A stretch of 64,000 nt of DNA from an uncultured Gammaproteobacteria bacterium (GTDB lineage Bacteria; Patescibacteriota; Patescibacteriia; UBA9934; CAZDDW01): positions 8,031-72,030 of the forward strand of contig CAZDDW010000003.1 in the NCBI GenBank assembly GCA_964504365.1. Reading direction: 5' to 3'. Under the pieces are notes generated by a model. The model had not been told where the DNA came from, did no database searches, and was given only the letters and a program-made list of their open reading frames with translations. Both the position numbers and the translations under genes were made by a program. Shown here one piece after another: positions 21,543 to 58,047 of the stretch (within the stretch, counting starts at the first letter, position 1; each line of letters opens with the position of its first letter).

Positions 21543-21734
21543 GGCCGGCCACTCCTCTTGTCGTCAGAAGCAAAGAGCCGAAGGGTTTTGAATTGTGGAA
21601 CGATCGGAGGCCGGTGTCCTTACTAATTTTCAATTTTCATTCAATAACCAATGACCATTGTGACATTGAAAATTCAATGTAAATTCTAAATTGAAAATTG
21701 TAAATTTATTATCTGAGGCTCCCTGTGGCCGGCC
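21543..21734. mobile_element. MITE-like element copy 1 (about 190 bp, terminal inverted repeats GGCCGGCCAC...GTGGCCGGCC)
   Basis: The left 75 bp (GGCCGGCCACTCCTCTTGTCGTCAGAAGCAAAGAGCCGAAGGGTTTTGAATTGTGGAACGATCGGAGGCCGG) and right end (CTGAGGCTCCCTGTGGCCGGCC) are near-identical to the ends of a second copy at 39009..39218. The termini are inverted repeats and the interior is AT-rich. Confidence 0.5.
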
Positions 21735-21740
21735 AAAAGA

Positions 21741-21770
21741 AAAGGCCCCGCCGCAGTCAAGCGACGGGGT
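21741..21770 (-). terminator. terminator of the 21798..23015 gene
   Basis: ccccgccgc-agtcaa-gcgacgggg hairpin followed by TTTTCTTTT on the minus strand. Confidence 0.5.
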
Positions 21771-21797
21771 CGTGTTGAACGATGGAGCCAGTTCGTT

Positions 21798-23015
21798 CTA
21801 CTGGGGAGTCTGTACCTGAGCCACGGGTTCGGGCGGCGTGTTGAGCGCGGCCAGCTGTCCGGCGACCATGGTCTGGTAACTCGCCGTGTACTTCAGCGTA
21901 CGCACCGTGCGCAGATCCGTGGCCACTCGCGCGGTCATGCCGCGGACCTCGTCGGCCTCCATACCGGACCACTGGGCAGCCAGAGTCAGCCAGACCCGGG
22001 TGTTGACCACCCAGTCCTCGTACTGCTGGACCGTGCCACCGAGAGCCACGATGTCCTCGTAGCGGCGCATGTAGAATCCGTCATACCCGGATCCGGTCGT
22101 GGTCTCGGCATCGATCTTGCGCCGCAGCTCGACCGGGTCCACGAACGAACCGGACCAGTAGCCGCTGATGTAGTCGTGCGCGTTGTTGGTCAGATGCTCG
22201 GGCAGCATCGGCTTGACCGTTTCGTAGTCCTGGCTGAGGATCAGCCAGGAACCGACGTTGCTCAGCACGTCCTCGTCGAGCACGGCCTGGCGTGCGGCCA
22301 GGATGAGCTCCTCGCAGGGACGATCGACATCGCCGTCGACCTCGCAGATCTCACCGTTGATCAGGCCGTGGTAGGAGATCGTGTCCCCGAGACCACCGAG
22401 AACCCAGGCACCAACGAAGGTGCGTGCGTTGACCGGAACCGGGAAGGTCTCGGCCAGGCGGGTGATCAGCTCGGGCTGACCGTCGGTGTTGACGACCAGT
22501 GCCTGCTCCTCACGCATCAGCTGCATGGCATTCAGACCCTCGGGCAAGGCCGGGAATCCGCCGGTATCGAGGGCGGCCGTGAAGGCACGCAGGGTGTCGA
22601 ACGGCTTCTTCTTCTCGTCGAAGCTCTTCTGCTGCTCGGCATTGAACTTGTCGGCCAACGCCTCCAGGCTCGCCGGCGTGGCTGCCAGCTCCGCCTCGAC
22701 CTTGGTCAGATCGGATTCGAGGGTGGCGATCTTGGCCTTCAGCGCGGCCATATTCTCGCGGTGCTCCCGCTCCTCGTCGGTCTCGCCGATCGGGGGCATG
22801 CGCTGCTCCCCAGACGAATCGTCGGCGACTGCATTGGTCTCGTCCCCGTCCGCAGTCGGATCCGCGGGCACGGTCTCCTCGGCTGCCTCGGCCTCGTCGT
22901 TTCCGAAAGCCCAGCGCAAGGCCGGCTTGAAACCGATCACGATGACGAACAGCACAACGCCGATACCGACGAACCAGGGCCAGCGGCGGGAACTCTTGGT
23001 GGTGGGATCTCCCAT
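21798..23015 (-). CDS. GC-rich hypothetical type II membrane protein: short N-terminal tail, one transmembrane helix, acidic linker, coiled coil, and a ~270 aa C-terminal domain
   Basis: Start at MGDPTTKSS with ribosome-binding site gaggagag; transmembrane segment WPWFVGIGVVLFVIVIGF; coiled coil ENMAALKAKIATLESDLTKVEAELAA. Far more GC-rich than the flanking tuf and fusA genes. Has its own TTGACA, 17 nt, TATTAT promoter and its own terminator. Confidence 0.5.
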   Translation of the reverse strand: MGDPTTKSSRRWPWFVGIGVVLFVIVIGFKPALRWAFGNDEAEAAEETVPADPTADGDETNAVADDSSGEQRMPPIGETDEEREHRENMAALKAKIATLESDLTKVEAELAATPASLEALADKFNAEQQKSFDEKKKPFDTLRAFTAALDTGGFPALPEGLNAMQLMREEQALVVNTDGQPELITRLAETFPVPVNARTFVGAWVLGGLGDTISYHGLINGEICEVDGDVDRPCEELILAARQAVLDEDVLSNVGSWLILSQDYETVKPMLPEHLTNNAHDYISGYWSGSFVDPVELRRKIDAETTTGSGYDGFYMRRYEDIVALGGTVQQYEDWVVNTRVWLTLAAQWSGMEADEVRGMTARVATDLRTVRTLKYTASYQTMVAGQLAALNTPPEPVAQVQTPQ

Positions 23016-23130
23016 GATTTCTCTCCTCTTCTCGATTGAGATGAACGTTGTTGAAGCGACCCTCCATAGGCCGCGCTTGGGTTGATCTCGCGCTTGACTG
23101 TCCACCAAATCGGACAGTTAGCAACGCCGA

Positions 23131-23159
23131 ATAATAACACGTTTAAGCTTATCTGTCAA
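23131..23159 (-). promoter_or_regulatory. consensus sigma70 promoter of the 21798..23015 gene
   Basis: The minus strand reads TTGACA gataagcttaaacgtgt TATTAT, with AT-rich UP-like sequence (aagcttatttaagc) upstream. Confidence 0.5.
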
Positions 23160-23187
23160 CCCCAACAGGCTTAAATAAGCTAAAAAG

Positions 23188-23215
23188 AAAAACCCGTTGC
23201 AAGCAACGGGCAGGG
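23188..23215 (-). terminator. terminator of the 23235..23920 gene
   Basis: cccgttgc-aag-caacggg hairpin followed by TTTTTCTTTTT on the minus strand. Confidence 0.5.
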
Positions 23216-23234
23216 CCTAGCCCCTAGAGTCGTT

Positions 23235-23920
23235 CTACTGTGCTTCGGGCCACTTCTCGGGCAGCTCGGCCAGCATGCGATCGATGTCTTCCCGATAGGC
23301 CTCCGTATACAGGAGACCCTCCGGCGGATTGACCAGAGTGGCTTGAGCAGCCTTGAGCGAGGTCTCGGCAATTGACCGGCTGGTACAGCGGAAGGTCTGA
23401 ACTCCATCCCAGTACCGGGCCGTCGCGTGCTCGGGTGTTCCTTCTTCGAAGCACCCGTACAGAGCAATCCAGAGATGGAGGCTCTTGCATCCGTCTGGAT
23501 GATTGGCAAAGACCTCGTTGCCGAGCGCGTTGATCTCATCCTCATCAAGGAAGCTCAACGCTTCGCAACGAGCTGCTTCCCGCTCTTCGGCCTGCTCTGA
23601 CATGTTCTGCACGATCTCAGCCTTGAGACGCTCGTTCTCAGCCTTGAACTCGTCCAGCTCTTCCTGGAACGGATTGACCTCAGGCTCTTCAGGAACCGGA
23701 TCCATAGGTACGGCATTGGCAGCCTGCCCAGAATCACTATTCAGGGGCAGAAGACCAAAACAATCCCAACCGTTCCGGATATCCAAGTACCCCATTCCAA
23801 TGATCACCAGAAGAAAGACCAGGACCACCAAGACCCATAACCACCATAAACTCCTGCGCGAACCAGCCGCCCCAGAACCACTGGCGTCGTGTACCTTCTT
23901 TGTTTTATCGTCGGACATGA
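23235..23920 (-). CDS. GC-rich hypothetical type II membrane protein with the same architecture as its neighbour (transmembrane helix, Pro/Glu linker, coiled coil, ~110 aa Cys-containing C-terminal domain)
   Basis: Start at MSDDKTKK with ribosome-binding site gaaagg; transmembrane segment LWWLWVLVVLVFLLVIIGMGY; coiled coil EELDEFKAENERLKAEIVQNMSEQAEE; own promoter and terminator. Confidence 0.5.
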
Positions 23921-23973
23921 TCTGCCTTTCAACAGTAGAGCTGTTTAGTGAATGAACATTTTCGTAACGCAAA

Positions 23974-24002
23974 ATAATAGCATAAATAAGCCTAATTGTC
24001 AA
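23974..24002 (-). promoter_or_regulatory. consensus sigma70 promoter of the 23235..23920 gene
   Basis: The minus strand reads TTGACA attaggcttatttatgc TATTAT. Confidence 0.5.
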
Positions 24003-24029
24003 GGTAGTGAGCACAAAGCCGACGAACGG

Positions 24030-24062
24030 AAAAGACAAAACCGACGAACATTCGTCGGTTTT
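24030..24062 (-). terminator. fusA terminator
   Basis: Perfect hairpin ccgacgaa-ca-ttcgtcgg followed by TTTTGTCTTTT on the minus strand. Confidence 0.6.
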
Positions 24063-24087
24063 GTGCTTATTTTAGTCGGTTTCGTGC

Positions 24088-26172
24088 TTACTCTTTCTTC
24101 CCTCGCTTTTCAATAATCGCATCAGATACATTGCGTGGAACATCCTCATAGTGATCAAATTCCATTGAATAGCTAGCTCGTCCCTGAGTAATCGAACGCA
24201 ATTCAGTAGCATAACCAAACATCTCAGCCAACGGCACAAACGCTTCAACCACTTTCATGTTTCCACGATCACGCATTTCCTGAATCTTGGCTCGCTTAGA
24301 ATTCAAATCACCAACAACTGTTCCCATAAAATCTTCCGGTGTCACCACCTCAACTTTCATCACAGGCTCTTGCAAAGTAATTCCAGCTGCCTTGGCTGCG
24401 GCTTGGAAAGCCATAGAACCAGAAATCTTAAACGCAGCCTCAGAAGAGTCAACTTCGTGATAAGAACCATCATAAACAGTACATTTAATATCTAGCACTG
24501 GATATCCAGCCAACACACCACGCTCCATCGCCTCTTTAACACCCTTGTTAATCGGTTGGATATATTCCTTTGGAATCACACCACCTTTAATCTCATCAGT
24601 AAATTCATAACCACCACCAGCCTCAAGAGGCTCAATTCGCAACCAACAGTGACCGTACTGACCACGACCACCAGACTGACGAACAAATTTCCCCTCAGCT
24701 TCAGCCAACTTTTTGATCGACTCTTTGTAAGCCACCTGCGGAGCACCAACATTGGCCTCTACTTTAAACTCGCGCTTCATTCTATCAACAATAATATCTA
24801 AGTGCAGTTCTCCCATTCCAGAAATAATTGTTTGCAAAGTTTCATCATCTGTACGCACTTTGAAAGTTGGGTCCTCTTCAGCTAACTTAGCTAAAGCAAC
24901 TCCCATCTTTTCCTGGTCAGGCTTTGTCTTTGGTTCAATAGCAACAGAAATCACAGGTTCTGGGAATGTAATATTTTCCAAAACCACTGGATTATTTTCA
25001 TCACACAATGTTTGTCCGGTAGTCGTCCCTTTCAAACCAACTACAGCCGCAATGTCACCAGCATAAATCTCATCAATCTCTTCACGGTGATTAGCGTGCA
25101 TACGCAACAGTCGTCCGATGCGTTCTTTCTTTCCAGTTGATGCATTCAACACATAAGAACCTGACTTCAACACACCAGAGTAAACGCGGATAAAAGCTAA
25201 CTTACCAACAAACGGATCAGTAGCAATCTTGAATGCTAATGCAGCAAACGGCTCCTCATCAGAAGCTGGACGTGGAATAACTTTTTCTTCATCGTCTGGA
25301 TCAGTTCCTTCAACAGGTGGAACCTCCAATGGACTTGGTAGGTAATCAACAATCGCATCTAGCAATGGCTGCACACCCTTGTTCTTCAAGGCAGTACCAC
25401 AAAGCACAGGGATAATCTCTAGTTTCAAAACAGCCTCGTGCAAAATCTTTTTAATATCTTCCAAAGGGATCTCTTCACCAGCCAAATATTTTTCCATGGC
25501 CGCCTCATCATTTTCCACAATCGCTTCCATTAATTTCCCGCGCCACTCATCAGCTAACTCTTTCATGTCTTCAGGAATATCAGTCTCTTCCATTTCTTGC
25601 CCAAGATCATCTTTATAAATAGTTGCCTTCATGGTTAACAAATCAACAATCCCAGTAAACTTATCTTCAGCACCGATTGGCAGCTGCAAAGGATATGCTT
25701 TCTTGGTCAACCGCTCATGAATCGAATTCAGATCGTAAAAGAAATCTGCACCGGTTCGATCTAGTTTGTTAATAAAACAAATTCGCGGCACATTGTACTT
25801 GTCAGCCTGGTGCCAAACAGTCTCTGACTGTGGCTCAACACCAGCAACACCGTCAAAGATAACAGCACCACCGTCAAGCACACGCAATGAACGCTCCACC
25901 TCAACGGTAAAGTCTACGTGCCCTGGGGTATCAATAATATTAACTCGGTGATCTTTCCAGAAACAAGTTGTTGCAGCGGAAGTAATAGTAATACCGCGCT
26001 CTTGCTCTTGCTCCATCCAGTCCATCTCAGCTTCACCCTCATGCACCTCACCGATCTTATGCTTTTTACCAGTATAAAACAGAACTCGCTCAGTAACCGT
26101 AGTCTTACCAGCGTCAATATGAGCAATGATTCCAATGTTACGAGTTTTCTCAAGTGAATATTCTCTTGGCAT
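24088..26172 (-). CDS. fusA: elongation factor G
   Basis: 694 aa with [17 protein letters not shown] and NKLDR motifs. Confidence 0.95.
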
Positions 26173-26190
26173 ATTTTTGTATTTGATCGA

Positions 26191-26658
26191 TTAGCGTGCA
26201 AAGTGAGCAAAGGCACGGTTTGCCTCAGCCATTTTCTGCACATCAGTTTTCTTTTTAATAGCATCGCCCTCATTGTTGGCTGCGGCAATAAACTCATCAG
26301 CTAGACGATCAGCCATTGGACGACCTTTTTTGCTACGAGCAGCAGCCAACAACCATCGATAGCTCAAAGCAACACGGCGCTCGCCGCGTACAGGAATAGG
26401 GATCTGATAGTTGGCTCCACCGATTCGACGTGAACGAACCTCAAGTGATGGACCAATATTCTTCATGGCAGTATCAAAAACCTCTACTGGATCTTGCTTA
26501 GTTTTCTCAGCCACAATATCAAAAGCATCGTAAACTACTTTCTGTGCAGTTGACTTCTTTCCCCCTTTCATAACGTAATTAATAAATTTAGCAACGAGAA
26601 CGTTGCTATACTTGGGGTCGGGTGTAATAACCCGCTTTGGTGCTTGTTTCCCACGCAT
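26191..26658 (-). CDS. rpsG: 30S ribosomal protein S7
   Basis: [36 protein letters not shown]. Confidence 0.9.
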
Positions 26659-26732
26659 ATGTTCTGGTTAAGCCAGCGTTTCTTCCCCCGTGGCGAGGTA
26701 CTGCGCTAGCAAGACTTAAATGATTTTAACGT

Positions 26733-27152
26733 TTAGCTTTTAGGCTTTTTAGTTCCGTATTTAGATCGACTACGCTTTCGTCCATCAACACCCTGAGTGT
26801 CATAAACTCCACGAACAACGTGATACCGAACACCAGGCAAATCTTTCACTCGACCACCACGGATCATCACGATTGAGTGCTCCTGCAAATTGTGACCTTC
26901 ACCTGGAATGTAAGCTGTTACCTCAGTACCATTTGAAAGACGCACACGAGCAATCTTTCGAATAGCTGAGTTTGGTTTCTTTGGTGTAGCAGTTGTCACC
27001 TTAACACAAACACCACGCTTAAAGGCACTTCCCTTTTTGAGCGCAGTAGTTTTTCTATGCAAAGAATCCAGCGTGTACTGCATTGCTGGAGATTTACTGT
27101 TTTTCTTTGAGGTCTTCCGACCCTTTCTAATCAATTGAGAAATTGTAGGCAT
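26733..27152 (-). CDS. rpsL: 30S ribosomal protein S12
   Basis: The start is [13 protein letters not shown]; PKKPNSA is also present. Confidence 0.9.
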
Positions 27153-27238
27153 ATTTCTGAAGTGCCGAAATAATAACATGAGGTTAAAATTAGGTCAAGT
27201 GGCTCTGTGAGGAAAACATTGGTCAGAGCATAATAAGC

Positions 27239-27267
27239 TTGACAATAATACATTTTTCTGTTAATGT
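27239..27267 (+). promoter_or_regulatory. sigma70-like promoter (TTGACA, 17 nt, TAATGT)
   Basis: TTGACA ataatacatttttctgt TAATGT lies upstream of the 27315 gene, preceded by taagctt. Confidence 0.4.
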
Positions 27268-27314
27268 TTCCTATTATTCCTGATCCTTCAACTAACAATG
27301 CAGAAAGGGTTGCC

Positions 27315-27752
27315 ATGTCAACCAAACCCAGAACCTTGCGTAGAGTCATCCGTGAATTCTGTGCCGATCATGGCATCGTCTATGACCAATCTATCGTGAA
27401 CCTTCGTTTCAGAGATACGGCAATTGCCAAGTTACTCAGCCGCAAGGTACTGCAGGTAGAACAAGTACCCCAACAACAGTTCCTCGTTTGGACTGAAGCG
27501 GCCATACGTATTGGTATGCGTCAGCCGGTGTTCGAAATCACATTCCAAGATAGGCCGGACCAGACTCTAGTGATGTTCTTGAATACGACATCCGATGATG
27601 AAGAGGAAGAAGAACCTTTGACAGAGGTTGATTTACTCTTCCGTCATGAGTTGGACCGTTCAATCGATACTGATACCGACGAGGTTGTGGGCGGCAGGAC
27701 TCTTGATCAGCAAGAGTTCGATGATTGGCAAAGAAGCGATGCCAAGGACTAG
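27315..27752 (+). CDS. hypothetical acidic protein
   Basis: Start at MSTKPRTLRRV with ribosome-binding site aaaggg; EEEEE stretch; hairpin terminator at 27786..27815. Confidence 0.4.
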   Translation: MSTKPRTLRRVIREFCADHGIVYDQSIVNLRFRDTAIAKLLSRKVLQVEQVPQQQFLVWTEAAIRIGMRQPVFEITFQDRPDQTLVMFLNTTSDDEEEEEPLTEVDLLFRHELDRSIDTDTDEVVGGRTLDQQEFDDWQRSDAKD

Positions 27753-27837
27753 ACCACCCCATCCAGATGACCCTTACGACAACAACACCGCGCGGTCTCC
27801 CGTGCGGCTTTTTCTTTTTCTAATTTTCTCTATATCA

Positions 27838-28518
27838 CTAACCTGCGAAAACCAAACTCAATATGGCAATACAATTCTCACCAACCAAAGCGCTGCAGGT
27901 TTGGAATGCTGGGAGGCTAATGAAGAAGAAGACTGGGATACTGGTTAGGATAGCGATAAAAACTGCAAGAAATAGAATCTGCGGACCACGCACAGCAACG
28001 AACTTGCGCAAGGCTGCATACTTTGGTGCGTCAAAGATGGCGAACAGTAATTTCGAACCATCAAGCGGATGGATCGGGATAATATTGAAGAACATCAGGA
28101 ACAAATTGATTAGTACCAGCAAGAACAGGAAGACAACTAGTAGATTCAATTCAACTAACCAGCTGCCGTTGAGCATCAAACGCAGGACCAAGGCCGATAG
28201 CATGGCCAAGACCAAATTCGAAGCAGGCCCAGCTAAACCAACAATCACAGAATCCCACTTCGGGTTCTTTAGATTATTCGGATTATATGGCACTGGCTTG
28301 GCCCAACCGAATCCGAGTAACAACAGCGGAATAAATCCCATCCAGTCAATATGAGCCAATGGATTCAGGGTTAAGCGACCGGCCCGCTCAGCTGTATGAT
28401 CTCCGCGAAGCTTAGCAGCCAGACCATGCGAAAACTCGTGCACAGTTAAAGCAACCAGGATGGCCAAGATCCAGGCAAAAGCGATTGGCGCGTTGTTCCA
28501 AAGTAATGATAAAAACAT
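27838..28518 (-). CDS. site-2 protease family zinc metallopeptidase (peptidase M50)
   Basis: HEFSHG zinc motif and the NIIPIHPLDGSK second motif, with multiple transmembrane segments. Confidence 0.7.
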   Translation of the reverse strand: MFLSLLWNNAPIAFAWILAILVALTVHEFSHGLAAKLRGDHTAERAGRLTLNPLAHIDWMGFIPLLLLGFGWAKPVPYNPNNLKNPKWDSVIVGLAGPASNLVLAMLSALVLRLMLNGSWLVELNLLVVFLFLLVLINLFLMFFNIIPIHPLDGSKLLFAIFDAPKYAALRKFVAVRGPQILFLAVFIAILTSIPVFFFISLPAFQTCSALVGENCIAILSLVFAG

Positions 28519-28574
28519 GCCGCTATTCTACCCTACTTGCCAAAATTAGTCGACCATGATAGTATCTCGACGTT

Positions 28575-28805
28575 ATGTCAAAGTTCTGCGAGGCCTGTGG
28601 CCGTGGACCGCTTTCAGCACAAAGCCGCTCAAAGTCCATGATGATCACTAAGCGCCGTCAAAAAGTCAATCTACAAAACAAAACCATTGATGGTAAAAAG
28701 GTAAAACTTTGTACCAAGTGCTTGAAGTCTAGTACTAAGGAAGGTTTTGTACTCAAGTTCGGAGCCAAGCCAAGAGTTGGTAAACGAACTAAGAAGAGTA
28801 AATAA
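28575..28805 (+). CDS. rpmB: 50S ribosomal protein L28
   Basis: MSKFCEACGRGPLSAQSRSKSMMITKRRQKVNLQ. Confidence 0.85.
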   Translation: MSKFCEACGRGPLSAQSRSKSMMITKRRQKVNLQNKTIDGKKVKLCTKCLKSSTKEGFVLKFGAKPRVGKRTKKSK

Positions 28806-28848
28806 AGGAAACAAAAAATCACGACCTGGCGTCGCGATTTTTGAATTC

Positions 28849-30144: not shown

Positions 30145-30260
30145 AACATGACTAGCTTACCAATATTTACAGGCCAAGACAACAACTTGACGGATAAGAC
30201 AAATAGGAGTACTCTGGCCTTCCTGGTTCCTTCAACCCCGCGACACAAAGGAGATAACAT

Positions 30261-30983
30261 ATGTCGCTGGTATTCCAACCTCTTCCCAACGCGCTACTGG
30301 CCCTGGCCAAGCTGCCCCATGGCAGGATCATCGACGACGATGACAACACCTACACCATCATGCACGAAGGTGAGGCCGAAGCGGCCCTGGTCGCACTGAG
30401 CGAAGCTGGGTGCGACGAAGACATGGTCGAACTCATGCGCACCGAGCTGATCGCGCTCAACTTCCCAGCGGATCTAGGCGAGCTGATCCTGGCCCTGACC
30501 CAGGTCAACCTGGGCGATGACTTCGACCCGGGCGACCTGAGCTTCGAAATCTGCGAACCCGACGAGGACATCAAGGTGCCGCATGGCCAGATCATTCAGG
30601 ACGATCACCTCGCCGGCGCCTCGGCAATCACCAGCATGGAGCACGCGCTCTCCATCATGATGGTCGGTGCCAGGGATGGGTTCATTACCGCCGAACAGGG
30701 AATCTTCCTGCTCAAGCAAATGGCTGCGGCCGACCTGATGCTCACCCAGAAGCAAGTGCTGGCCCACCACGGCTACACCCGAGACACTGACGGCACCTAC
30801 CGCTCCGAGGCCCGGGACGGATCGACCAAAGTCGAAACGGCTACCCGGATCCTTCACATGGGACCGCTGACGATCCTCGTTTCCAGAATCGAGACCACCG
30901 AGATCGACGGCGAGGACGAGCCGCGCGACACGGTCGAGGATGACGAGGGCGGTGACAGCCCGACCGAGGGCGGCGGCTGGTAG
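30261..30983 (+). CDS. GC-rich hypothetical acidic protein
   Basis: Ribosome-binding site aaaggaga 6 nt before the ATG; promoter TTGACG, 17 nt, TACTCT upstream. High GC; no recognisable motif. Confidence 0.45.
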   Translation: MSLVFQPLPNALLALAKLPHGRIIDDDDNTYTIMHEGEAEAALVALSEAGCDEDMVELMRTELIALNFPADLGELILALTQVNLGDDFDPGDLSFEICEPDEDIKVPHGQIIQDDHLAGASAITSMEHALSIMMVGARDGFITAEQGIFLLKQMAAADLMLTQKQVLAHHGYTRDTDGTYRSEARDGSTKVETATRILHMGPLTILVSRIETTEIDGEDEPRDTVEDDEGGDSPTEGGGW

Positions 30984-31061
30984 CCCAGACCAGCACAGAA
31001 CACAAAACTGACCCACACAGGATCAGTCGACTCTATACCACGGACGCAAGTTCGTGGTTCT

Positions 31062-32145: not shown

Positions 32146-32166
32146 AGAAAAAGAGGACAAGCTGTC
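32146..32166 (-). terminator. terminator of the 32169 gene
   Basis: agaggacaagctgtcctct hairpin followed by a T-run on the minus strand. Confidence 0.5.
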
Positions 32167-32168
32167 CT

Positions 32169-32945
32169 CTATTGATCCACACGTTTTTCCACAGCTACAG
32201 TGGAAAAGTCAAAGCCAAAAACATGGGCCATGAAGAGCTGAAGCAGACCAGAGGCTTCAGGCGAAGGCTTAAGACCGTCATGGATTCGTTGCAGTGCATC
32301 GCGATCCTCTACGTACAAAGCCTTGTAGTAGGCCAAACGCTCTTTAAAGCTGTCTTCATCCAACTCAGCGTGGAACTGAGTGGCATAGATTGGCTTATCT
32401 GGAAAAGCAAAAGCCTGGACCAGTGAAGCTTCGCTGCGGGCCAAAACAACTGCCCCATCAGGCACCCTAGTAATGAAATCCTTATGCCCTTGCTGGGTAT
32501 TAAAACTACCGGGCAGCTGGGAGAAGATCGGATCCACTTGGCCCTCTTGGGTCAAGGAAACTGTGTAGCTTCCCATTTCCTGATCTTCTGGACGGTACTC
32601 GACTCGACCACCAAGTGCTTCAGCTAAAATCTGAGCACCAAAACAAATACCAAAAGTTGGCATGTTCTGTGTGGCTGCAGCACGAACCACCTCAAGCAAT
32701 TCTTGCCAATGTGGCAGGTCACCCTTGGACACAGCGAAAGATCCGCAGCCAGGTAACAAGAGAAGGTCATGACCATCAAGATCACTGACCCGAGGTGCCG
32801 TGGTCAGAGTATCAACTATCGTCAACTGATCTTCAGGAAGACCGCTGATTCGTTTTAGACATTCTAGTTCTGGACCTTTTGTGTCCGCTTCTCGGAATTG
32901 GTAGATGAGCACTTTCAGCTCCTTTGGTTGTTTTAAGGATTTCAT
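32169..32945 (-). CDS. class I glutamine amidotransferase-like protein (active-type, peptidase C26-like); paralogue of the 31062 gene
   Basis: GICFGAQILAEALGG with the nucleophile Cys, and QFHAELDE; same layout as the 31062 gene but with visibly higher GC. Confidence 0.6.
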   Translation of the reverse strand: MKSLKQPKELKVLIYQFREADTKGPELECLKRISGLPEDQLTIVDTLTTAPRVSDLDGHDLLLLPGCGSFAVSKGDLPHWQELLEVVRAAATQNMPTFGICFGAQILAEALGGRVEYRPEDQEMGSYTVSLTQEGQVDPIFSQLPGSFNTQQGHKDFITRVPDGAVVLARSEASLVQAFAFPDKPIYATQFHAELDEDSFKERLAYYKALYVEDRDALQRIHDGLKPSPEASGLLQLFMAHVFGFDFSTVAVEKRVDQ

Positions 32946-33042
32946 GTTTTCATGTTTTAATTATTTTCTCTTTTCTTTCATGGCCTCTGTTGAGACCAGG
33001 AAAGAGAAGAGCTGCGCGCTTGCATTGCGCGCAGCGTAGAAG

Positions 33043-34383
33043 TTAGAGAGGCAGGAACACTCGACTGCGTCGTGTCTCGATCCGATGCAATCGATCGTGG
33101 TAGCGGTGACGAACACCCTCAGCCTGATCACGATTGGCACCCACAAAGAACAGAGTGGCCTTGCCTGAACCGCGCCAGCAGCCCGGATTACCAGGAACGA
33201 TTCCAGGACGATCCGTACCGTCATAGAGCATCCCATCGACCCGATGATGAATCAGGTCTTCGTGGCCCATACCCTTAGGTATTTCAGTGTTCTCCATAAC
33301 CACACTGCAACTGCCACCGAAACGCGGAGCAACCTGATCAGCGAACGAGCAGACATACTTGGCCGCAGTACCGCGACCATTGATCTCGATCACGTAGACA
33401 AAGACCATTCCGGCGAAACGGATGACCAACAGGTCGATCCCAATAGTCCGAACCATTTCCTGGTCTGGTTGACCGCCACGACCAACACCCCGTCGAACAG
33501 CTTCGTTGCAAAACGGAATGATTGCTCGCATGATCGCCTGGTAGACTTGTACATCGACCAAGAACTGACCGACCGAGACAATATTGCCCTTGTGGGCATT
33601 GCCTTCGGTGATCTGCTGCGTTAGTTTGAGCAGTTTCCAACCGCCCAAACCAACAGCCACCTGGGCGCTGATCTCAGTCATATCGAACATGTCAGCCGGA
33701 TAAGCCGCCTCGATCACCAGTTGCTTGTGGCCATGCTCGGCCAAGAACTGAGCCACCTCAGCAGGATCCGTTCCTGGACCAACGAGCAAGTTGCTTGCTC
33801 CCCCATCAGCACCTGGGTCCTTGAGCATGACCGAATCAGTCTCCAGAACTTCGGCCGCCTCAGCCAAAACTTGTTGACGCAAGCGATCGAAATCGCCTAG
33901 ATTGCGAAACATGCTCCGCCAGGCCGTGAAGTGACCAGCTGCACCAGGCAAGAGTCGAGCACTGAGCTTGTGATCGAACAGTTCTGCCAGGTTTGGCTCG
34001 ATCGCCGCAGTATCACGGAAGCGCAGACCAAGCATCTGGCGAACCAAGAAGCTCAGCCGCGGGGTGAACAAACTCAACGGCCTTCCCTGCGCAACAGATC
34101 GTTGCACCTGTTGCAGCTCATCAGCGTAGCGCAGCAATCCCCGGGTCAGGTCACCACCAGGAACGACCACTAGCTGGTCAGCCCCAAGCTCGATCTGACG
34201 CATGTAGGCAAAAGTATCTTCGATATCCAGACGCGTCCCCTGCGTATCGGCACCAGTCACAGTCATGCCTGGGCAGACCAGGCTCCGGCTGGCGTAGTTA
34301 GCCAACCCACCGATATCAATCCCGCGACTCCGAAACGGAGTCATGTCGTCTACGTTCGTCTGCAGCCGCGTGAATGCGTCCAC
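33043..34383 (-). CDS. GC-rich putative ATP-grasp family ligase
   Basis: VMLKDPGADGGASNLL resembles the ATP-grasp glycine-rich loop (compare glutathione synthetase VKPLDGMGGASI), and VFVYVIEINGRG resembles the E-x-N motif. Likely GTG start at VDAFTRLQ with ribosome-binding site aaagagggg. Confidence 0.4.
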   Translation of the reverse strand: MDAFTRLQTNVDDMTPFRSRGIDIGGLANYASRSLVCPGMTVTGADTQGTRLDIEDTFAYMRQIELGADQLVVVPGGDLTRGLLRYADELQQVQRSVAQGRPLSLFTPRLSFLVRQMLGLRFRDTAAIEPNLAELFDHKLSARLLPGAAGHFTAWRSMFRNLGDFDRLRQQVLAEAAEVLETDSVMLKDPGADGGASNLLVGPGTDPAEVAQFLAEHGHKQLVIEAAYPADMFDMTEISAQVAVGLGGWKLLKLTQQITEGNAHKGNIVSVGQFLVDVQVYQAIMRAIIPFCNEAVRRGVGRGGQPDQEMVRTIGIDLLVIRFAGMVFVYVIEINGRGTAAKYVCSFADQVAPRFGGSCSVVMENTEIPKGMGHEDLIHHRVDGMLYDGTDRPGIVPGNPGCWRGSGKATLFFVGANRDQAEGVRHRYHDRLHRIETRRSRVFLPL

Positions 34384-34634
34384 TGGTTTCCCCTCTTTGG
34401 TTAAAATGTGCACAAAACAAAACGACCTCACTCATGAGGCCGTCCCTGTTTACCAGATTATGTCTAAATAATCAAGAACGGCCTTATGAAATAAAGAGGT
34501 CAATAATAAGTCCTACGAACATGTCGCGGTCAACTTTTCCAATTTGTGTCGCAGGATAATTCATATCGAATGTAAATCTATCATACCTTATTTTTCCGGT
34601 CAAATTAAGGGGGGCTGTGGATAGTCGACCAGGC

Positions 34635-34663
34635 CTTGATTCTTTTCGCTCAATCAACTATAA
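34635..34663 (+). promoter_or_regulatory. sigma70 promoter of ndk (TTGATT, 17 nt, TATAAT)
   Basis: TTGATT cttttcgctcaatcaac TATAAT lies about 30 nt upstream of the ndk start. Confidence 0.5.
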
Positions 34664-34691
34664 TATGGCCAAAATTAACCTAAGAATAATT

Positions 34692-35285
34692 ATGCCAGAA
34701 AATCCAAAACAGGAAAAAACTTTTCTGATGGTAAAGCCAGACGGTGTCAAACGCGGTATCATCGGTGACATTATCACTCGCTGTGAGCAGCGTAACCTGA
34801 AAGTCGTAGCAATCAAAATGGAACTTGCCACTCACGAGCAAATGGATAATCATTATCCAAAAGATCCAGCCTGGGTTACTCGAGTTGGTGAAAAAACCTT
34901 AAAGACCTATCACAAGGCTGGTTGGGATGCTAAGAATGAACTTGGTACTGATGACCCAGCAGAGATTGGTGCCATGGTCCGTAAATGGTTGATTGAATTC
35001 ATGACTTCAGCACCTGTAGTCAAGATGGTCATCCAAGGTGTGCGTTCTGTAGATATGGTCCGCAAGATCGCCGGATCAACCATGCCAGCTGATGCAGACA
35101 TGGGAACTATCCGCGGCGACTATTCAGTTGACACCGCATTAATCGCCAATGCTGAAAAACGTCCAGTACGAAACATTGTTCATGCTTCAGAGACACCAGA
35201 AGAAGCAGCACATGAGATTGAACATTGGTTTGATGCTGGCGAGATCTGTGAGTATAGTAGAAGCGAAGAAGAAATGCAGTTCTAG
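34692..35285 (+). CDS. ndk: nucleoside diphosphate kinase with an internal insertion
   Basis: TFLMVKPDGVKRGIIGDIITRCEQ and the NIVHASE catalytic region; about 50 aa longer than a canonical Ndk. Confidence 0.8.
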   Translation: MPENPKQEKTFLMVKPDGVKRGIIGDIITRCEQRNLKVVAIKMELATHEQMDNHYPKDPAWVTRVGEKTLKTYHKAGWDAKNELGTDDPAEIGAMVRKWLIEFMTSAPVVKMVIQGVRSVDMVRKIAGSTMPADADMGTIRGDYSVDTALIANAEKRPVRNIVHASETPEEAAHEIEHWFDAGEICEYSRSEEEMQF

Positions 35286-37660
35286 AAAATTAGCGGCTTG
35301 GATCGGATAACTTGATCCAAACCATCAGAAATCAAAAGTACATCAGCATCCAGGTCTGTTCGCCAGATCTGGATGTTTTGATCCTGTAGCCGCTGCAACA
35401 CAACCGGATGTGGGTGGCCGTAGGAGTTGTCTTCGCCAACAGTAATCACCGCGGTTTCGATATCAAGTAATTCTAAAAACCGGACTGAACTCGAGCTGAT
35501 ACTGCCGTGGTGCGGGACTTTGAGTACATCAATCTGATTTGAAACATTGCGCAGCACTTCGGCTTCTTGCTCTTGATACATGTCGCCGGTGAACAGAATC
35601 ACAGTCTCACCATGGGCTAACTCAATCACGATCGAGGTCTCGTTGACTTCGTCGATATTTTCATTTTCAAATGATTGATCAGGGAACACAGCTCGCAAAC
35701 CATAACCAAGATCCATTGAATCATCCACGATCGTCACCTGCCCCACCCTTTCTTCAAACGCGTCTAAATAACTTGACCGATAATTCACTCCGGTCATGAC
35801 CACCTGATCGATCTGGTAACGATCCAAAACTTCGATCAAACCAGAGATGTGATCTGAGTGCGGGTGTGTTGAAATAATCATGTCAATCGAACGATCCCAA
35901 AACGGCATAACTGCGCCCAGTTTCGATAACACAGCTTCTCCTGGACCGCCATCAATCAAAATCTGTTTGTTGTCAGGAGTTTGAATAAACACGGCGTCAC
36001 CTTGTCCGACATCAAAAAACCATACGCGGAGCTGTTTGTTTGTATTCAATGTTGAGCCAGTACTATCGAATGTTTGAAAACCAAAACATGCTACGAATAA
36101 AATTGTAAATGATGTGATCGCTAACCCCCAACGTCTACTTCCGTGAAAATGTTCTCGTCGCAATCTGGTTTTGCGATACAACCAGAACAACCAAGCGATC
36201 AGCGCTATCGCGATCACGCTGGCTACGACTTCACTCCAGGGAATCGACACGCTGGCGATCGAAAGTGAACCAAACCAGCGGATAATGTAAAGCATGGTTG
36301 ACAAGCATGTCCAGGCAGCAATTGAAACAAACGCGGCCAGCTTAGTCGAGATAAATCCAACAACGATCGCAATCGCACCAAAGCCCATGGCATACGGAAC
36401 CAGTGGCAGAACCAAGAAATTAACTAATGGCGATACGATCGAGAGCTGTCCAAACTGCAAAATGAGAATTGGCAAAGTCATGATCGTTGCTGCCAAAGTT
36501 GAAACGATCGCCTCGCGAAAACCTCCGGTCGCAGGAATGAATCGGAACTTGTGCTCGATCCGAGGAACAATCATAACCAGCCCGATCGTGGCTAAAAACG
36601 ATAACTGAAAACCAACGTCGTCGAGCAATAATCTTGGATTCACAAAAAGCATCGCCACCGCAGTCAGAGCCAGAATATTTCGCAACGCAGAATCATTTCG
36701 CGCTCGACCCAAAGACCGGCCAAAGACAACAATCAAGCCCATCACTCCAGCACGAGTCACGGCTGGATCAAACCCGGCAACAACAACGTAAATCCCAATC
36801 GCTCCAGCCACCAGAGCCAACGCTGTACGCCGGCGAAAGAGCAGAGCAACGAGGGCCAAGAATAAAAAGCGAGAAAAAATACTAACGTTATATCCAGACG
36901 CGGCTAGGATATGCGAAGTGCCAGTGTCAACAAAATCTTGTCGCAGATCAGAAGAGATTGAGCCCTTGCCCCCAAAAAGCAGGCCGGACAAAAAAGTCGA
37001 ATGTGGTTCAGAAAATATCTGTTCAGTTTTGTTGTATATCACTTGTTTAAAATCGAACAATGTTGATCGAAGTGTTGTCACCTGATTTGATCGAACATCA
37101 ACTGCATCCGGCCACCAACACACAGCAAGCACGCCGCGCGTACGCAAATATCGATCATAAGCAAACCCATCAAATGGTTCTGGTACTTCAAGCTCACATC
37201 GAAAAGCCACCTCGTCCCCGAAACTTATCGTTGGATACTTTGGCATCCAAACCATGACCTTGCCCAAAGCATGCTCATCAGCGACCAGAACATGATCAAT
37301 CGTCACCTGCTGCGACTGAGCTTTTTCAACCACCTCATCAGAAACAACACCTTCGATGCGCACTTCGCGATTCAAAGTATCAGAGACTAGAAACGCATCA
37401 ACTGGTAAAAAAACCTGTGAAAAGCGCCAAAGTCCAAGAAGAAAGAAAAAAAGAAATAAAAATACAAAACACATGGCACGACGTGCGACGTGCGACACGC
37501 TCACCACTACCCCAACCAAACACCCCAACATTCCACCAACCAACCACCCATTCCATAAAGGTTCACCAACTAACCCACCAACAAAAATCCCGAGCAAAAA
37601 CCCGAGCAACACCACGAACAAAGATCGTGAAGGAGATTTAACGATTGATTCCAACTCCAT
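35282..37660 (-). CDS. comEC: DNA internalization competence protein ComEC/Rec2 with a C-terminal metallo-beta-lactamase domain
   Basis: Polytopic transmembrane region followed by ISTHPHSDHISGL. Confidence 0.8.
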   Translation of the reverse strand: MELESIVKSPSRSLFVVLLGFLLGIFVGGLVGEPLWNGWLVGGMLGCLVGVVVSVSHVARRAMCFVFLFLFFFLLGLWRFSQVFLPVDAFLVSDTLNREVRIEGVVSDEVVEKAQSQQVTIDHVLVADEHALGKVMVWMPKYPTISFGDEVAFRCELEVPEPFDGFAYDRYLRTRGVLAVCWWPDAVDVRSNQVTTLRSTLFDFKQVIYNKTEQIFSEPHSTFLSGLLFGGKGSISSDLRQDFVDTGTSHILAASGYNVSIFSRFLFLALVALLFRRRTALALVAGAIGIYVVVAGFDPAVTRAGVMGLIVVFGRSLGRARNDSALRNILALTAVAMLFVNPRLLLDDVGFQLSFLATIGLVMIVPRIEHKFRFIPATGGFREAIVSTLAATIMTLPILILQFGQLSIVSPLVNFLVLPLVPYAMGFGAIAIVVGFISTKLAAFVSIAAWTCLSTMLYIIRWFGSLSIASVSIPWSEVVASVIAIALIAWLFWLYRKTRLRREHFHGSRRWGLAITSFTILFVACFGFQTFDSTGSTLNTNKQLRVWFFDVGQGDAVFIQTPDNKQILIDGGPGEAVLSKLGAVMPFWDRSIDMIISTHPHSDHISGLIEVLDRYQIDQVVMTGVNYRSSYLDAFEERVGQVTIVDDSMDLGYGLRAVFPDQSFENENIDEVNETSIVIELAHGETVILFTGDMYQEQEAEVLRNVSNQIDVLKVPHHGSISSSSVRFLELLDIETAVITVGEDNSYGHPHPVVLQRLQDQNIQIWRTDLDADVLLISDGLDQVIRSKPLIF

Positions 37661-38954
37661 AATAAGCAAATCCTTTTTCAAACAAATCCATATCAGCCAA
37701 TAAATTACGGCCATCAAAAATCACGGCCCGATGCATACCTTCACGCACACTGTTAAACTGCGCTGCTCGGAACTCTGGCCATTCAGTTAATACCAACAAA
37801 GCGTCGGCACCCTGCACCGCATCCAATGCAGAACCAGCAAGCTCAATCCGATCAGAGAAAATTTGCTTGGCATTCTCAGCTGCTTGCGGATCATAAGCAA
37901 CCACGTCCGCGCCCTCGGCAAAACACTTAGAAATAATATCGATCGCTGCTGACTCACGCACATCATCCGTCCCAGCCTTGAAAGCCAAGCCCCAAACAGC
38001 AATCCTCTTACCACCCAGCTCACCGATAACTGAACGCACCTTGTTTACAAAACGTTCGCGCTGCACGTTATTCACTTCAATTACCGAAGACAACAAACGA
38101 AAATCATGACCATTTTCCCCGGCCAGCTGATGCAAGGCAGTTACATCCTTAGGAAAACATGATCCACCATAACCAATCCCAGCCTTTAGAAACGAACTGC
38201 CGATTCTTCTATCCAAACCAATTGCCTGCGCCACCTGACGTACATCTGCTCCACTAGCCTCGGCCATGTTAGCGATTTCGTTGATAAAAGAAATCTTGGT
38301 TGCCAAAAAAGCATTGGCAGCATACTTGGTTAACTCAGAAGACTCTGGATTCATTACCAACTTCGGACACTCAATCGGTTTGTATAACTCCATGATCAAA
38401 TCCCCGGCCCAAAGTTGATCAACCCCAACAACAATCCGGTCTGGATGTAAAAAATCATTAATCGCTGAACCTTCACGCAAAAACTCTGGGTTCGAAGCAA
38501 CAACAACATTAACCAACATGGTATCACGACCAGAATCAACAACACCTTGATCAACTAATTTCTTTACCTGCCGTGATGTACCGACTGGAACCGTGCTCTT
38601 AGTAATCACGTAAGCATTATGTGCAACGTGCTGCCCAACCTCATAAGCCACCTGCTCAACAAAAGACAGATCAACTCGTCCATCAACTTTCGGTGGCGTA
38701 CCAACACAAATAAAAATAAACGAAGCGTTAGCCACCCCGTCTTTAATCGAATCTTTAAAATGCAGCTTCCTGGCCTGAACCCCATCGCTAACCAACTCAG
38801 CTAGGCCTGGCTCATAAAACGGCATCTTTCCAGCCTGCAACTGCCTGACCTTGTCCGGATCATTATCTACACAAACCACATTATGCCCGAAGCTAGCCAA
38901 ACAAGCTCCGGTTACCAAACCAACATATCCTGTGCCGATTATCGCAATTTCCAT
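37638..38954 (-). CDS. ugd: UDP-glucose 6-dehydrogenase
   Basis: MEIAIIGTGYVGLVTGACLA (Rossmann fold) and GGSCFPKD. Confidence 0.85.
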   Translation of the reverse strand: MEIAIIGTGYVGLVTGACLASFGHNVVCVDNDPDKVRQLQAGKMPFYEPGLAELVSDGVQARKLHFKDSIKDGVANASFIFICVGTPPKVDGRVDLSFVEQVAYEVGQHVAHNAYVITKSTVPVGTSRQVKKLVDQGVVDSGRDTMLVNVVVASNPEFLREGSAINDFLHPDRIVVGVDQLWAGDLIMELYKPIECPKLVMNPESSELTKYAANAFLATKISFINEIANMAEASGADVRQVAQAIGLDRRIGSSFLKAGIGYGGSCFPKDVTALHQLAGENGHDFRLLSSVIEVNNVQRERFVNKVRSVIGELGGKRIAVWGLAFKAGTDDVRESAAIDIISKCFAEGADVVAYDPQAAENAKQIFSDRIELAGSALDAVQGADALLVLTEWPEFRAAQFNSVREGMHRAVIFDGRNLLADMDLFEKGFAYYGVGINR

Positions 38955-39008
38955 AGGTCGACACCTTACCAAAAAACTGGCCTTTACGCCAGATGATTTA
39001 TCAAGATA

Positions 39009-39218
39009 GCCGGCCACTTCTCTTGTCGTCAGAAATAAAGAGCCGAGGGGTTTTGAATTGTGGAACGATCGGAGGCCGGACTATCAAATCCACTCTATAA
39101 ATAAGTATCATTTTAATGTTCCGGCCGACGCCGAGCGAGGCAATGATCATTCTCGACCCAACCACCCTGCGGGCCGAGCGCTTCCACAATCAAAACCCTG
39201 AGGCTCCCGTGGCCGACC
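39009..39218. mobile_element. MITE-like element copy 2
   Basis: Same terminal sequences as copy 1 (CCGGCCACTTCTCTTGTCGTCAGAAATAAAGAGCCGAGGGGTTTTGAATTGTGGAACGATCGGAGGCCGG ... CTGAGGCTCCCGTGGCCGACC). Sits in the 3' untranslated region of the MFS gene, upstream of ugd. Confidence 0.5.
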
Positions 39219-43310: not shown

Positions 43311-43317
43311 AAGTTTT

Positions 43318-47958: not shown

Positions 47959-47963
47959 TCTAC

Positions 47964-58034: not shown

Positions 58035-58047
58035 AATTCCTTCCGCC

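Follow-up and report, generated by a model that had tools for sequence, protein, structure and literature searches.

The 64-kb stretch of DNA analysed here (the window) carries two copies of what we consider, with moderate confidence, to be a new family of MITE-like, imperfectly palindromic intergenic repeats from a clade of marine Patescibacteria, belonging to the same functional class as the ERIC, Correia and REPIN elements. Its probable mode of action is as a hairpin within operon transcripts, whichever way round it lies. The host is an uncultured marine Patescibacterium, nearest to Uhrbacteria.

The two segments with near-identical ends described in the earlier note were both recovered (copies 1 and 2, Table 1). 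The left arm is shared with high significance (BLASTN E = 1e-26) and is near-identical as claimed, with 67/71 bases matching in a repeat search (94%; 21544-21614 versus 39009-39079), over a length of 72 nt and not the 75 bp first given. In both copies the right end of about 20 nt is the inverse of the left terminus. The termini form a perfect 10-bp inverted pair in copy 1 (GGCCGGCCAC / GTGGCCGGCC) and read AGCCGGCCAC / GTGGCCGACC in copy 2. Within the 64-kb window the 9-mers G[CT]CGGCCAC and GTGGCCG[AG]C are confined to the four ends of the elements, and a looser terminus pattern added one unpaired chance match at 48999. A covariance model run with filters off found exactly two copies in the window; copy 2 was also echoed on the reverse strand (22 bits, E 2.5e-05), as expected for a palindrome, and the rest of the window held no match better than E = 0.04. 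The interiors differ as described, that of copy 1 being 21% GC and that of copy 2 GC-rich. Copy 2 is intergenic between the MFS gene and ugd, 4 nt past the MFS stop codon and 53 nt ahead of the ugd ATG, and is antisense to both neighbours. Copy 1 likewise sits where it had been placed, at the border of a GC-rich block between fusA and tuf (59% GC versus 46% for the whole window); it is flanked by this island and by a Phd-like gene upstream of tuf, and is antisense relative to the genes of the tuf locus.

Table 1. Features of the two element copies and their immediate surroundings, in window coordinates.
Feature	Position	Strand	Pairing or support
Copy 1, type B, 192 nt	21543..21734	+	covariance model 61.5 bits
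Intact left arm of copy 1 (94% identity with copy 2 arm)	21543..21614	+	
AT-rich (21% GC) palindromic module in place of type-A interior and most of right arm	21615..21712	+	
Copy 1 right end CTGAGGCTCCCTGTGGCCGGCC, with P2 and P1 right strands	21713..21734	+	
GC-rich island touching copy 1 right terminus	21735..24034	-	
Small terminator-like hairpin and T-run, ahead of ugd ribosome-binding region	38977..38992	-	
Copy 2, complete type A, ~210 nt (211)	39008..39218	+	covariance model 235 bits; nhmmer E = 1.8e-68
P1 left strand GCCGGCCAC	39009..39017	+	pairs with 39209-39217 (GTGGCCGAC)
Asymmetric 22-nt bulge, conserved motif TCG(T/A)CAGAA(R)(Y)AAA	39018..39039	+	alignments
P2 left strand GAGCC	39040..39044	+	pairs with 39202-39206 (GGCTC)
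P3/P4 left strand GGGTTTTGA-A-TTGTGGAACGATCGG, conserved bulged A	39047..39072	+	pairs with 39174-39199
Inner hairpin P5, GGCCGGA ... TCCGGCC, variable loop ~39 nt	39074..39126	+	
Conserved block B2 TCCGGCCGACGCCGAGCGAGGC	39120..39141	+	
Second variable stretch, after B2	39142-39171	+	
Right arm, reverse-complement partner of left arm minus 22-nt bulge	39174..39218	+	

Copies beyond these two were found both in the same organism and in its relatives. A third lies between ybaB and recR, sense to its flanking genes, which brings the loci in the window organism to at least three (fusA-tuf, MFS-ugd and ybaB-recR). Relatives have the element at the same loci, with orthologous copies in at least two further species (L031 is the orthologue of the ybaB-recR copy), and one diverged copy occurs in a Tara contig. 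Two loci are occupied in the sister species, one of them by a pair: a type C element is found at MFS-ugd (L037), and at ybaB-recR (L182) a type C and a type A element are joined head to head with a 2-nt overlap. The two type-C copies are about 77% identical in a gapped alignment and differ mainly by two indels. Types B (window organism) and C (sister species), in which an AT-rich palindromic module replaces the interior, recur at different loci. Copies range in size from 192 to 249 nt and their density is low, about 3 per ~100 kb seen. All come from metagenome assemblies, which are prone to mis-joins at repeats; copy 2 is unchanged in four independent metagenome contigs, and copy 1 in L002-L004 and L176-L178, with three substitutions in its left arm in strain L177. 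Close strains are all filled at the MFS-ugd site, and spacers there that lack the element (34 nt in L044, 148 nt in L042/43) belong to species (ugd 72-77% identical) that have diverged too far for an empty site to be reconstructed.

The inverted repeat extends beyond the 10-bp terminus into an imperfect arm of about 55 nt, and the whole element folds as one long bulged hairpin made up of P1, the 22-nt bulge, P2, P3/P4 with its bulged A, and the inner-hairpin junction. The earlier note had drawn the left arm as a self-contained stem enclosing two inner hairpins; this is not the conserved fold, in which the full length of the left arm is paired with the right arm. Covariation, which had been suggested as a check, is present: in the five type-A copies 95.8% of cells fall in pairs, and compensatory double changes are seen at 7 of the 48 pairs. 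This count was reached by 0 of 500 shuffles, and slid controls gave 0-2. In P1, one C·A mismatch becomes U-A in L037 and one G-C becomes A-U in L182. P2 is seen in four complementary versions, that of copy 2 being joined by GAACC/GGTTC (L166), ATGAC/GTCAT (L031) and AGAC/GTCT (L037 and L182). The P3/P4 left strand is identical in four type-A copies (window organism, strain variants and L031), has two changes in the degraded type-B copy of L177 and carries two compensatory pairs in L182, where P5 (GGCCGTG/CACGGCC) shows another two. The 22-nt bulge is cut to 7 nt in L037 and in element 2 of L182. The fold is preserved across species through compensatory substitutions.

Constraint on the sequence was also evident. 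Between L031 and L166, from two species whose fourfold-degenerate sites are 55% identical (34/62), the element keeps 82% identity; it includes three blocks of 31-35 nt that are 100% identical, and its loops are roughly neutral. The copies share no ORF that keeps its frame or length. Shuffled sequences fold much less well than either strand (z -3.7 to -7.9), and the strand sense to the flanking genes folds better in three of four copies and ties in the fourth. Wobble pairs number six on the local sense strand versus two on the antisense strand, an asymmetry that is not statistically significant, and four on each strand when counted by element coordinates.

Copy 1 is a degraded, rearranged derivative of type A and not a typical member of the family. 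Homology to it in the alternative contig L005 stops exactly at 21614, and 44 nt of its AT-rich module recur at 95% identity in the MFS-ugd element of another strain (L040/L041). Two genes occupy the adjoining island (21798-23015 and 23235-23918), and each has a TTGACA-17-TATTAT promoter and an intrinsic terminator of its own; a homologue search with the first returned only itself. New DNA occurs exactly at the element termini, as a second element in L182 and as GC-rich gene islands in the window and L040/41. At two loci it is the right terminus that GC-rich variable gene islands abut.

The label MITE-like given in the earlier note was borne out in part. MITEs are defined as elements of 50-800 bp with terminal inverted repeats and no transposase ORF (PMC11602168). 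The present element agrees in size and in having no such ORF; its GGCCGGCCAC/GTGGCCGGCC ends, growing into the long imperfect arms, match the terminal inverted repeats of at least 10-15 bp typical of MITEs, and it is non-coding, intergenic and dispersed in multiple copies. No target-site duplication was detectable at any of six distinct junction pairs. The flanks of W1, W2, L005, L031, L166, L037 and L182 show no consistent direct repeat, and the matches of only 2 nt (TA, AA) at two sites are compatible with chance. A scan of the window and of ~300 kb from related contigs found no transposase, RAYT or recombinase with matching ends. Searches for a plasmid or phage match to the element found none. 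The paralogous copies and the head-to-head pair are the only pointers to mobility, and suggest that the element may move; no filled-versus-empty site pair was recovered between close strains.

We propose that the element would be spread by a trans-acting enzyme recognising its paired or folded arms. Because no target duplication was found, a single-strand hairpin-recognising mechanism or insertion at a GGCC-like target is favoured over classical cut-and-paste. Once in place, the element would be co-transcribed with the flanking genes and work as an RNA hairpin, which may uncouple adjacent genes by signalling RNA processing, stability or termination. That the arm sequence is perfectly conserved implies a putative sequence-specific protein partner. 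There are precedents for such behaviour: Correia elements, 100-200 bp long, form a transcript hairpin cleaved by RNase III and can carry promoters, ERIC elements are reported to influence mRNA decay, with an effect via RNase E, and nested repeat insertions occur in pneumococci (PMC10969869). Orthologous persistence together with such strong conservation would be uncommon in a MITE that is purely selfish, and it accords equally well with a role for the host and with a genuine RNA gene.

Among known families, the ERIC elements (IRU) of Enterobacteriaceae and Vibrionaceae are also intergenic imperfect palindromes, found in either orientation in transcription units at modest copy number, with cross-species sequence conservation and size variants that arise through blocks inserted or replaced internally; this palindrome, orientation, copy number, conservation and size variation was reportedly described by Hulton in 1991 and by Wilson & Sharp in 2006. 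ERIC is 127 nt long, however, versus about 210 nt here, and the present element comes from another phylum and is set apart by its long, asymmetric bulge and by the three-way junction inside it; sequence similarity to ERIC was neither expected nor seen. The Correia elements of Neisseria (CREE/NEMIS) share the intergenic setting, inverted-repeat ends and long hairpin, but have a TA target duplication, an IHF site and >120 copies per genome, whereas no duplication was found for the element here and its copy number is low. RAYT-mobilised REPIN/REP sequences resemble it as a hairpin of two inverted conserved arms around a variable spacer, in having no classical target duplication and in long-term vertical persistence, and recognition of a folded single strand is plausible for both. 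A REP unit measures 20-40 nt and has a conserved GTAG-type head, and a genome usually carries tens to hundreds of them along with a cognate RAYT gene; the arms here, at ~55 nt, exceed that length, and the available DNA showed no RAYT. Classical prokaryotic MITEs match in size, terminal inverted repeats of at least 10 bp, non-coding intergenic location and occurrence in several copies, and differ in that no 2-10-bp target duplication or parent IS was found here, as well as in the strong in-situ conservation and covariation of the present element.

The alternative that fares best, though we judge it unlikely, is a genuine structured ncRNA gene family, trans-acting or protein-binding and expressed from one defined strand, with the palindrome reflecting a rod-like RNA fold. 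The small structured RNA offered as an alternative in the earlier note holds up in that structure is clearly conserved, with compensatory changes in four helices, conserved single-stranded motifs (bulge TCGWCAGAARYAAA and block B2), and orthologous copies whose blocks stay identical against the divergence at neutral sites. The minus-strand terminator-like hairpin lies 15 nt outside the left end of copy 2, is kept in L040 and is missing from the empty L044 spacer. Against this, the orientation to neighbouring genes varies between copies, no promoter or terminator consistently flanks them, and wobble pairs do not favour one strand in element coordinates. Invariant sequence lies in helices and not loops, the reverse of most RNA families, interiors are exchanged for unrelated AT-rich modules while the termini are retained, and no Rfam 15 family matched the element, whether the cut-off was the gathering threshold or E<=10. 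A retron ncRNA (msr-msd) was considered and rejected: three genes and 2.3 kb separate the retron-type RT from the recR copy, and no reverse transcriptase was present among the ORFs scanned beside the window copies.

Less probable still is a recombination or attachment site whose folded or paired terminus, like an integron attC or a tRNA-gene attB, takes in GC-rich cassettes and other elements. Its appeal lies in the junctions: GC-rich variable DNA begins at the first base past the right terminus, both in the window (in several independent assemblies) and at a different locus in L040/L041 (in two independent assemblies), as well as in L005, and in L182 the left terminus is the exact point at which a second element is joined. 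The outer stem, unpaired spacer, inner stem, bulged base and variable terminal part also recall attC sites such as the Vibrio VCRs, as do the adjoining variable genes. However, attC sites measure 57-141 nt, and the termini here (GCCGGCCAC/GTGGCCGGC) are not the RYYYAAC ... GTTRRRY cores. No integrase or recombinase lies nearby, the island genes carry their own promoters and terminators with no repeat between them, and the far end of the island has neither a second copy nor a half-site. Other GC-rich patches in the window adjoin no element, the L040 junction deletes most of the left arm and so is not a clean site-specific event, and L005, a single contig, may be an assembly chimera across the repeat. 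A related view, equally doubtful to us, takes the element as a conserved structured nucleic acid (RNA or folded ssDNA) whose termini would let new DNA into these reduced genomes, as a dedicated landing pad capturing GC-rich orphan gene cassettes and further palindromic modules by a mechanism unrelated to integron or tRNA-gene integration.

We find it highly improbable that the element is a double-stranded DNA platform in which two inverted protein-binding sequences and GGCCG(A/G)C motifs recruit a regulator or nucleoid protein. The arm GGGTTTTGA(A)TTGTGGAA, identical in the four type-A copies, and a GGCCGAC/GGCCGAG-like motif present 4-5 times per element would suit such a role, but separate duplex sites give no reason to expect the compensation seen in P2, P3 and the inner hairpin, and the genes beside the element at the three loci have no functional relation to one another. 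Simple segmental duplication or chance similarity, which the earlier note tied to finding only two copies and no covariation, matches the count in the 64-kb window and is otherwise refuted because additional loci exist (the third locus, the orthologues and the diverged Tara copy); unrelated flanks, covariation and the significance of the shared arm leave it practically no credibility.

The genomes of Patescibacteria are tiny and contain little non-coding DNA, few mobile elements have been described from them, and in the searchable literature we came across no account of MITE-like or palindromic repeat families in the group. Conservation through compensatory changes at the same intergenic sites across species implies a function of the MITE-like repeat in this lineage; controlling operon transcripts or promoting genome plasticity are testable candidates. 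The repeat marks two strain-variable spots, fusA-tuf and MFS-ugd, and is useful for tracing gene acquisition by these symbionts, for strain typing and for spotting breaks in metagenome assemblies.

Direct reading of the window located both segments reported in the earlier note (Table): copy 1 in the fusA-tuf interval, where it adjoins a 2.3-kb block of 59% GC, and copy 2 in the MFS-ugd interval, with 4 nt between it and the preceding MFS stop codon and 53 nt between it and the ugd ATG that follows. A repeat search gave the two copies a common left arm of 71 nt at 94% identity (BLASTN, E = 1e-26); the arm quoted in the earlier note is 72 nt long, not 75. Within the 64-kb window the terminal 9-mers are confined to the four element ends. 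A covariance model run with filters off found only these two copies in the window (235 and 61.5 bits), together with an echo of copy 2 on the reverse strand (22 bits, E 2.5e-05), and all remaining matches were generic hairpins with E > 0.03.

Table. Coordinates of the repeat element, its junctions and other features of the window and related contigs
Feature	Location	Strand	Details
Copy 1 (type B)	window 21543-21734		start GGCCGGCCAC, end GTGGCCGGCC
Copy 2 (type A)	window 39008-39218		start AGCCGGCCAC, end GTGGCCGACC
Head-to-head pair, sister species	L182:10308-10749		central bases common, 16-nt perfect palindrome GTGGCTGGCCAGCCAC
GC-rich junction 1	window copy 1		several independent assemblies
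GC-rich junction 2	L040/L041, different locus		two assemblies
GC-rich junction 3	L005		possibly chimera
GC-rich island between fusA and tuf	window 21735-24034		two genes, 56-65% GC
Island genes	window 21798-23015; 23235-23918	-	
DNA beside ugd-locus element	L040:1-1023 (also L041)		
Patches of 55-63% GC	window 30501-31000; 33001-33500; 43501-45000; 50001-50500; 58501-59000		checked genes overlapping the first two (240-aa and 433-aa products; L176/L033 gene tables): no Pfam match
Orphan gene upstream of tuf	window 21053-21463	-	136 aa
Second repeat family	window 47850-47964; 61530-61645		~115 nt
Motif of second family near ybaB	L166:8993-9008		~30 nt upstream of ybaB
Third palindromic family	window 43313-43396; L005 ~1300-1400		8-nt tandem units GGTTATCT
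Leucyl-tRNA synthetase gene	window 40404-43310	-	968 aa
Repeated terminator-like segments, CTGGCGCTTTTTTTGTTGGC...	window 56952-56993 / 58057-58098; 57802-57835 / 58046-58079		
tRNA genes	window 59274-59347; 59474-59547		
Retron-type reverse transcriptase	L166:11813-12766; L182:14304-15230; also L167-L173		

The element also occurs beyond the two sites known from the earlier note. Of the matches to a second metagenome scan, two were due to chance and one was a genuine, diverged copy in the ybaB-recR spacer of a Tara contig (L031). The window organism's own ybaB-recR spacer, recovered from the same samples (L166-L175), likewise carries the element. BLAST aligns it with the Tara copy over 194 nt at 83.5% identity (82% when the pair is aligned in full), and its identity to copy 2 is 74%. 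This copy is sense to its flanking genes and both window copies are antisense to theirs. In the ybaB-recR spacer of a sister species (L182), two elements, one of type C and one 195-nt type A, stand left end to left end with a 2-nt overlap (GTGGCTG-GC-CAGCCAC). A simple segmental duplication, the alternative raised in the earlier note, is refuted. No further copies were found by nhmmer and the covariance model in ~300 kb of related contigs, so the density seen is about three loci per ~100 kb, and no solo arms or half-sites were found with up to 3 mismatches allowed. The element is missing from the short MFS-ugd spacers of more distant relatives, which measure 34 nt in one complete 1.0-Mb genome and 148 nt in another. 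With both copies as BLASTN queries, plasmids gave no match and phages a single weak 46-nt match judged to be chance; an exact 20-mer search of 185,579 representative genomes returned one coincidental match in a coding region. The first metagenome scan, which used a gapped pattern, gave zero matches, and all that four viral scans turned up was attributable to chance (20 nt in common with a phage gene and, for a termini-only pattern, GC-rich phage DNA).

Copy 2 represents the complete form, type A, of ~210 nt. Apart from a 22-nt insertion in the left one, its two arms are reverse complements of each other, so the entire element folds into a single hairpin. Type B, represented by copy 1, retains the left arm and, at the right end, 22 nt; a 98-nt palindromic module of 21% GC stands in place of all between. 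At the MFS-ugd locus of another strain, recovered in two independent assemblies (L040, L041), a like module (44 nt at 95% identity) is followed by the same right end. In an alternative tuf-locus contig (L005) the place of copy 1 is taken by a full type-A element with 89.6% identity to copy 2. From tuf to 21614, where the left arm has its last base, this contig and the window are 99.5% identical; past that base they are unrelated. L005 is possibly a strain variant at the tuf locus, and as a single contig it could be a mis-join across the repeat. In another strain variant (L177) the type-B left arm has 3 substitutions between identical flanks, suggesting that constraint on this arm relaxed after loss of its partner. 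Type C is a 250-nt relative in the MFS-ugd spacer of a sister species (L037; ugd 85% identical) which retains the termini and helix P2 around an interior of another kind, in which a long AT-rich hairpin is accompanied by a GC hairpin; the type-C element of L182 is ~77% identical to it in a gapped alignment, two indels being the main differences.

RNAalifold predicted 48 pairs in four helices from five type-A copies. In this model, P1 forms the terminal 9 bp and is followed by a left-side bulge of 22 nt with a conserved TCGWCAGAARYAAA within it, by the 5-bp P2, and by P3/P4, a helix of ~26 bp interrupted by a small internal loop and a conserved bulged A. Three parts make up the predicted junction beyond: a hairpin of 7 bp whose ~40-nt loop varies, the block GACGCCGAGCGAGGC, which is conserved and single-stranded, and another variable stretch. 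The earlier note had folded the left arm on its own, as a stem with two inner hairpins. As an independent RNA this arm folds just marginally better than shuffles (z about -2), and that fold is superseded by the arm-to-arm pairing. Standard pairs occupy 95.8% of cells in the five-copy alignment, compared to 25-48% after sliding partners by 1-3 columns. Covariation, proposed in the earlier note as a check, was found beyond the level of shuffles: seven pairs changed on both sides, a count too low for P2 owing to a misplaced MAFFT gap in L031, against a shuffle mean of 1.9 (0/500 reaching 7) and 0-2 in slid controls. Inspection and duplex folding revealed P2 as GAGCC/GGCTC, GAACC/GGTTC, ATGAC/GTCAT and AGAC/GTCT, and where P1 has a C·A mismatch in copy 2 and L005, the other copies have C-G and L037 has U-A.

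The genes flanking the element in L031 and L166 are only 55% identical at fourfold-degenerate sites (34/62). Against this, the element contains three blocks of 31-35 nt at 100% identity, and its loops have diverged as much as neutral sites. The stems and blocks are therefore either under purifying selection or homogenised through conversion between copies. That selection acts on the pairing itself is shown by compensatory changes in the L182 copy, which is more distant.

Both strands fold far below dinucleotide shuffles (z -3.7 to -7.9), as expected of a palindrome. Wobble pairs tallied in element coordinates were 4 vs 4 between strands; by local transcription, 6 were sense to the flanking genes and 2 antisense, an asymmetry that is not significant. 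The sense strand also had the lower folding energy in three copies and tied in the fourth, again not a significant difference, and we regard this sense-strand bias as suggestive. No consistent promoter or terminator was found around the copies, no ORF is conserved among them, which removes an encoded peptide as a candidate, and no Rfam family matched at gathering or permissive thresholds. Together these results favour a hairpin that would act inside read-through transcripts, in either orientation; folded single-stranded DNA is an alternative form that it could take. In function, the nearest analogues of the element are ERIC, Correia elements and REPINs. Transcript hairpins of ERIC and Correia elements are processed by RNase E or RNase III (PMC10969869).

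The earlier note had called the element MITE-like, a reading that is partly supported. Terminal inverted repeats, small size, lack of coding capacity and intergenic location point to mobility, as do paralogous copies at unrelated loci, the recurrence of derivative types at more than one locus and the position of one element exactly at the terminus of another. This L182 arrangement suggests that insertion may have occurred precisely at an element terminus, and the GGCC common to the head-to-head junction suggests a GGCC-type palindrome as target. Low copy number and long-term occupation of orthologous sites count against mobility. MITEs are defined by terminal inverted repeats of at least 10-15 bp, target-site duplications of 2-10 bp, a length of 50-800 bp and lack of a transposase (PMC11602168). 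The element lacks one of these defining features: a target-site duplication, which the earlier note had proposed to look for, was present at none of the junctions looked at. It is therefore MITE-like, not a MITE. An enzyme gene with matching ends was likewise absent from the DNA searched (the window and ~300 kb of related contigs). Also rejected were an integron attC (core sites wrong, integrase absent), a retron ncRNA (reverse transcriptase too distant, and none among the ORFs scanned beside the window copies), a diversity-generating (DGR) template/variable repeat (differences between copies are ordinary transitions, not adenine-specific) and a ribozyme (a hammerhead-like CUGANGA, sought by eye in the bulge, is not conserved in L031).

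At three junctions, GC-rich variable DNA starts at the first base past the right terminus, and a dedicated attachment site would account for this placement. No second repeat was found at the island's far end, no integrase is present near island or element, most of the left arm is deleted at the L040 junction, and none of the other GC-rich patches in the window adjoins an element, all of which argue against that reading. The association of island and element itself is real. In the island beside copy 1 (window average 46% GC), each gene has a TTGACA-17-TATTAT promoter matching 11/12 sigma-70 consensus positions and its own intrinsic terminator, and in each encoded protein a hydrophobic N-terminal segment precedes a charged region rich in Glu and Ala that by eye resembles a coiled coil. 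Neither gene had a Pfam or defence-system (PADLOC) match, and the larger matched only itself among the 8,000 best word-sharing candidates scored in a 5.8-billion-protein search. When the fusA-proximal edge of an alternative island was sought, every contig recovered carried the same island. In one strain, the DNA beside the ugd-locus element, in place of the MFS neighbourhood, consists of promoter-plus-terminator units in series. They show neither convincing long ORFs nor an Rfam match and so may be genes for small peptides or RNAs.

Several other features were observed. The orphan gene directly upstream of tuf has its own promoter, a weak, sub-threshold Phd/YefM antitoxin match at residues 2-43 and no adjacent toxin gene, and several metagenome contigs end within or just upstream of it. 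A second repeat family comprises two imperfect, AT-rich palindromes with 94% identity between them, whose 16-nt motif CAATAACCAAT(G/T)ACC-like recurs in the interior of copy 1, in L166 and in the related contig L042. In a third family, tandem units face their own inverse, beside the GC-rich patch 43501-45000 in the window and within GC-rich DNA in L005. The leucyl-tRNA synthetase has a NUDIX domain inserted within its core. The enzyme of the sister species (976 aa) shares this insertion, which is missing from those of more distant relatives (797-816 aa). Two tRNA genes are preceded at a short distance by repeated terminator-like segments within a GC-rich stretch. The retron-type reverse transcriptase, 2.3 kb from the ybaB-recR element, best matched the PADLOC models RT_VI and RT_II-A, with the NCBIfam retron St85 family below cut-off; ~540 nt of non-coding DNA lie upstream and three small ORFs downstream.

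Exact matches to window proteins occur in contigs from marine metagenomes (JGI 3300009374 and others, ENA assemblies). The sister species derives from JGI 3300032731/3300032737, and the samples include ones from an oxygen-minimum zone and from Tara. The nearest named relatives of the ugd and YbaB proteins are "Patescibacteria group bacterium" and "Candidatus Uhrbacteria". In the ribosomal operon S5 is directly followed by L15, with no L30 gene called, an order we take to be consistent with a Patescibacteria/Uhrbacteria placement. The element is a new family of a known kind of bacterial repeat, and no such family seems to have been described so far in the literature on Patescibacteria. What is unusual about the family is how clearly its hairpin is conserved, and its importance would be greater if its termini proved to be a capture site for new DNA.
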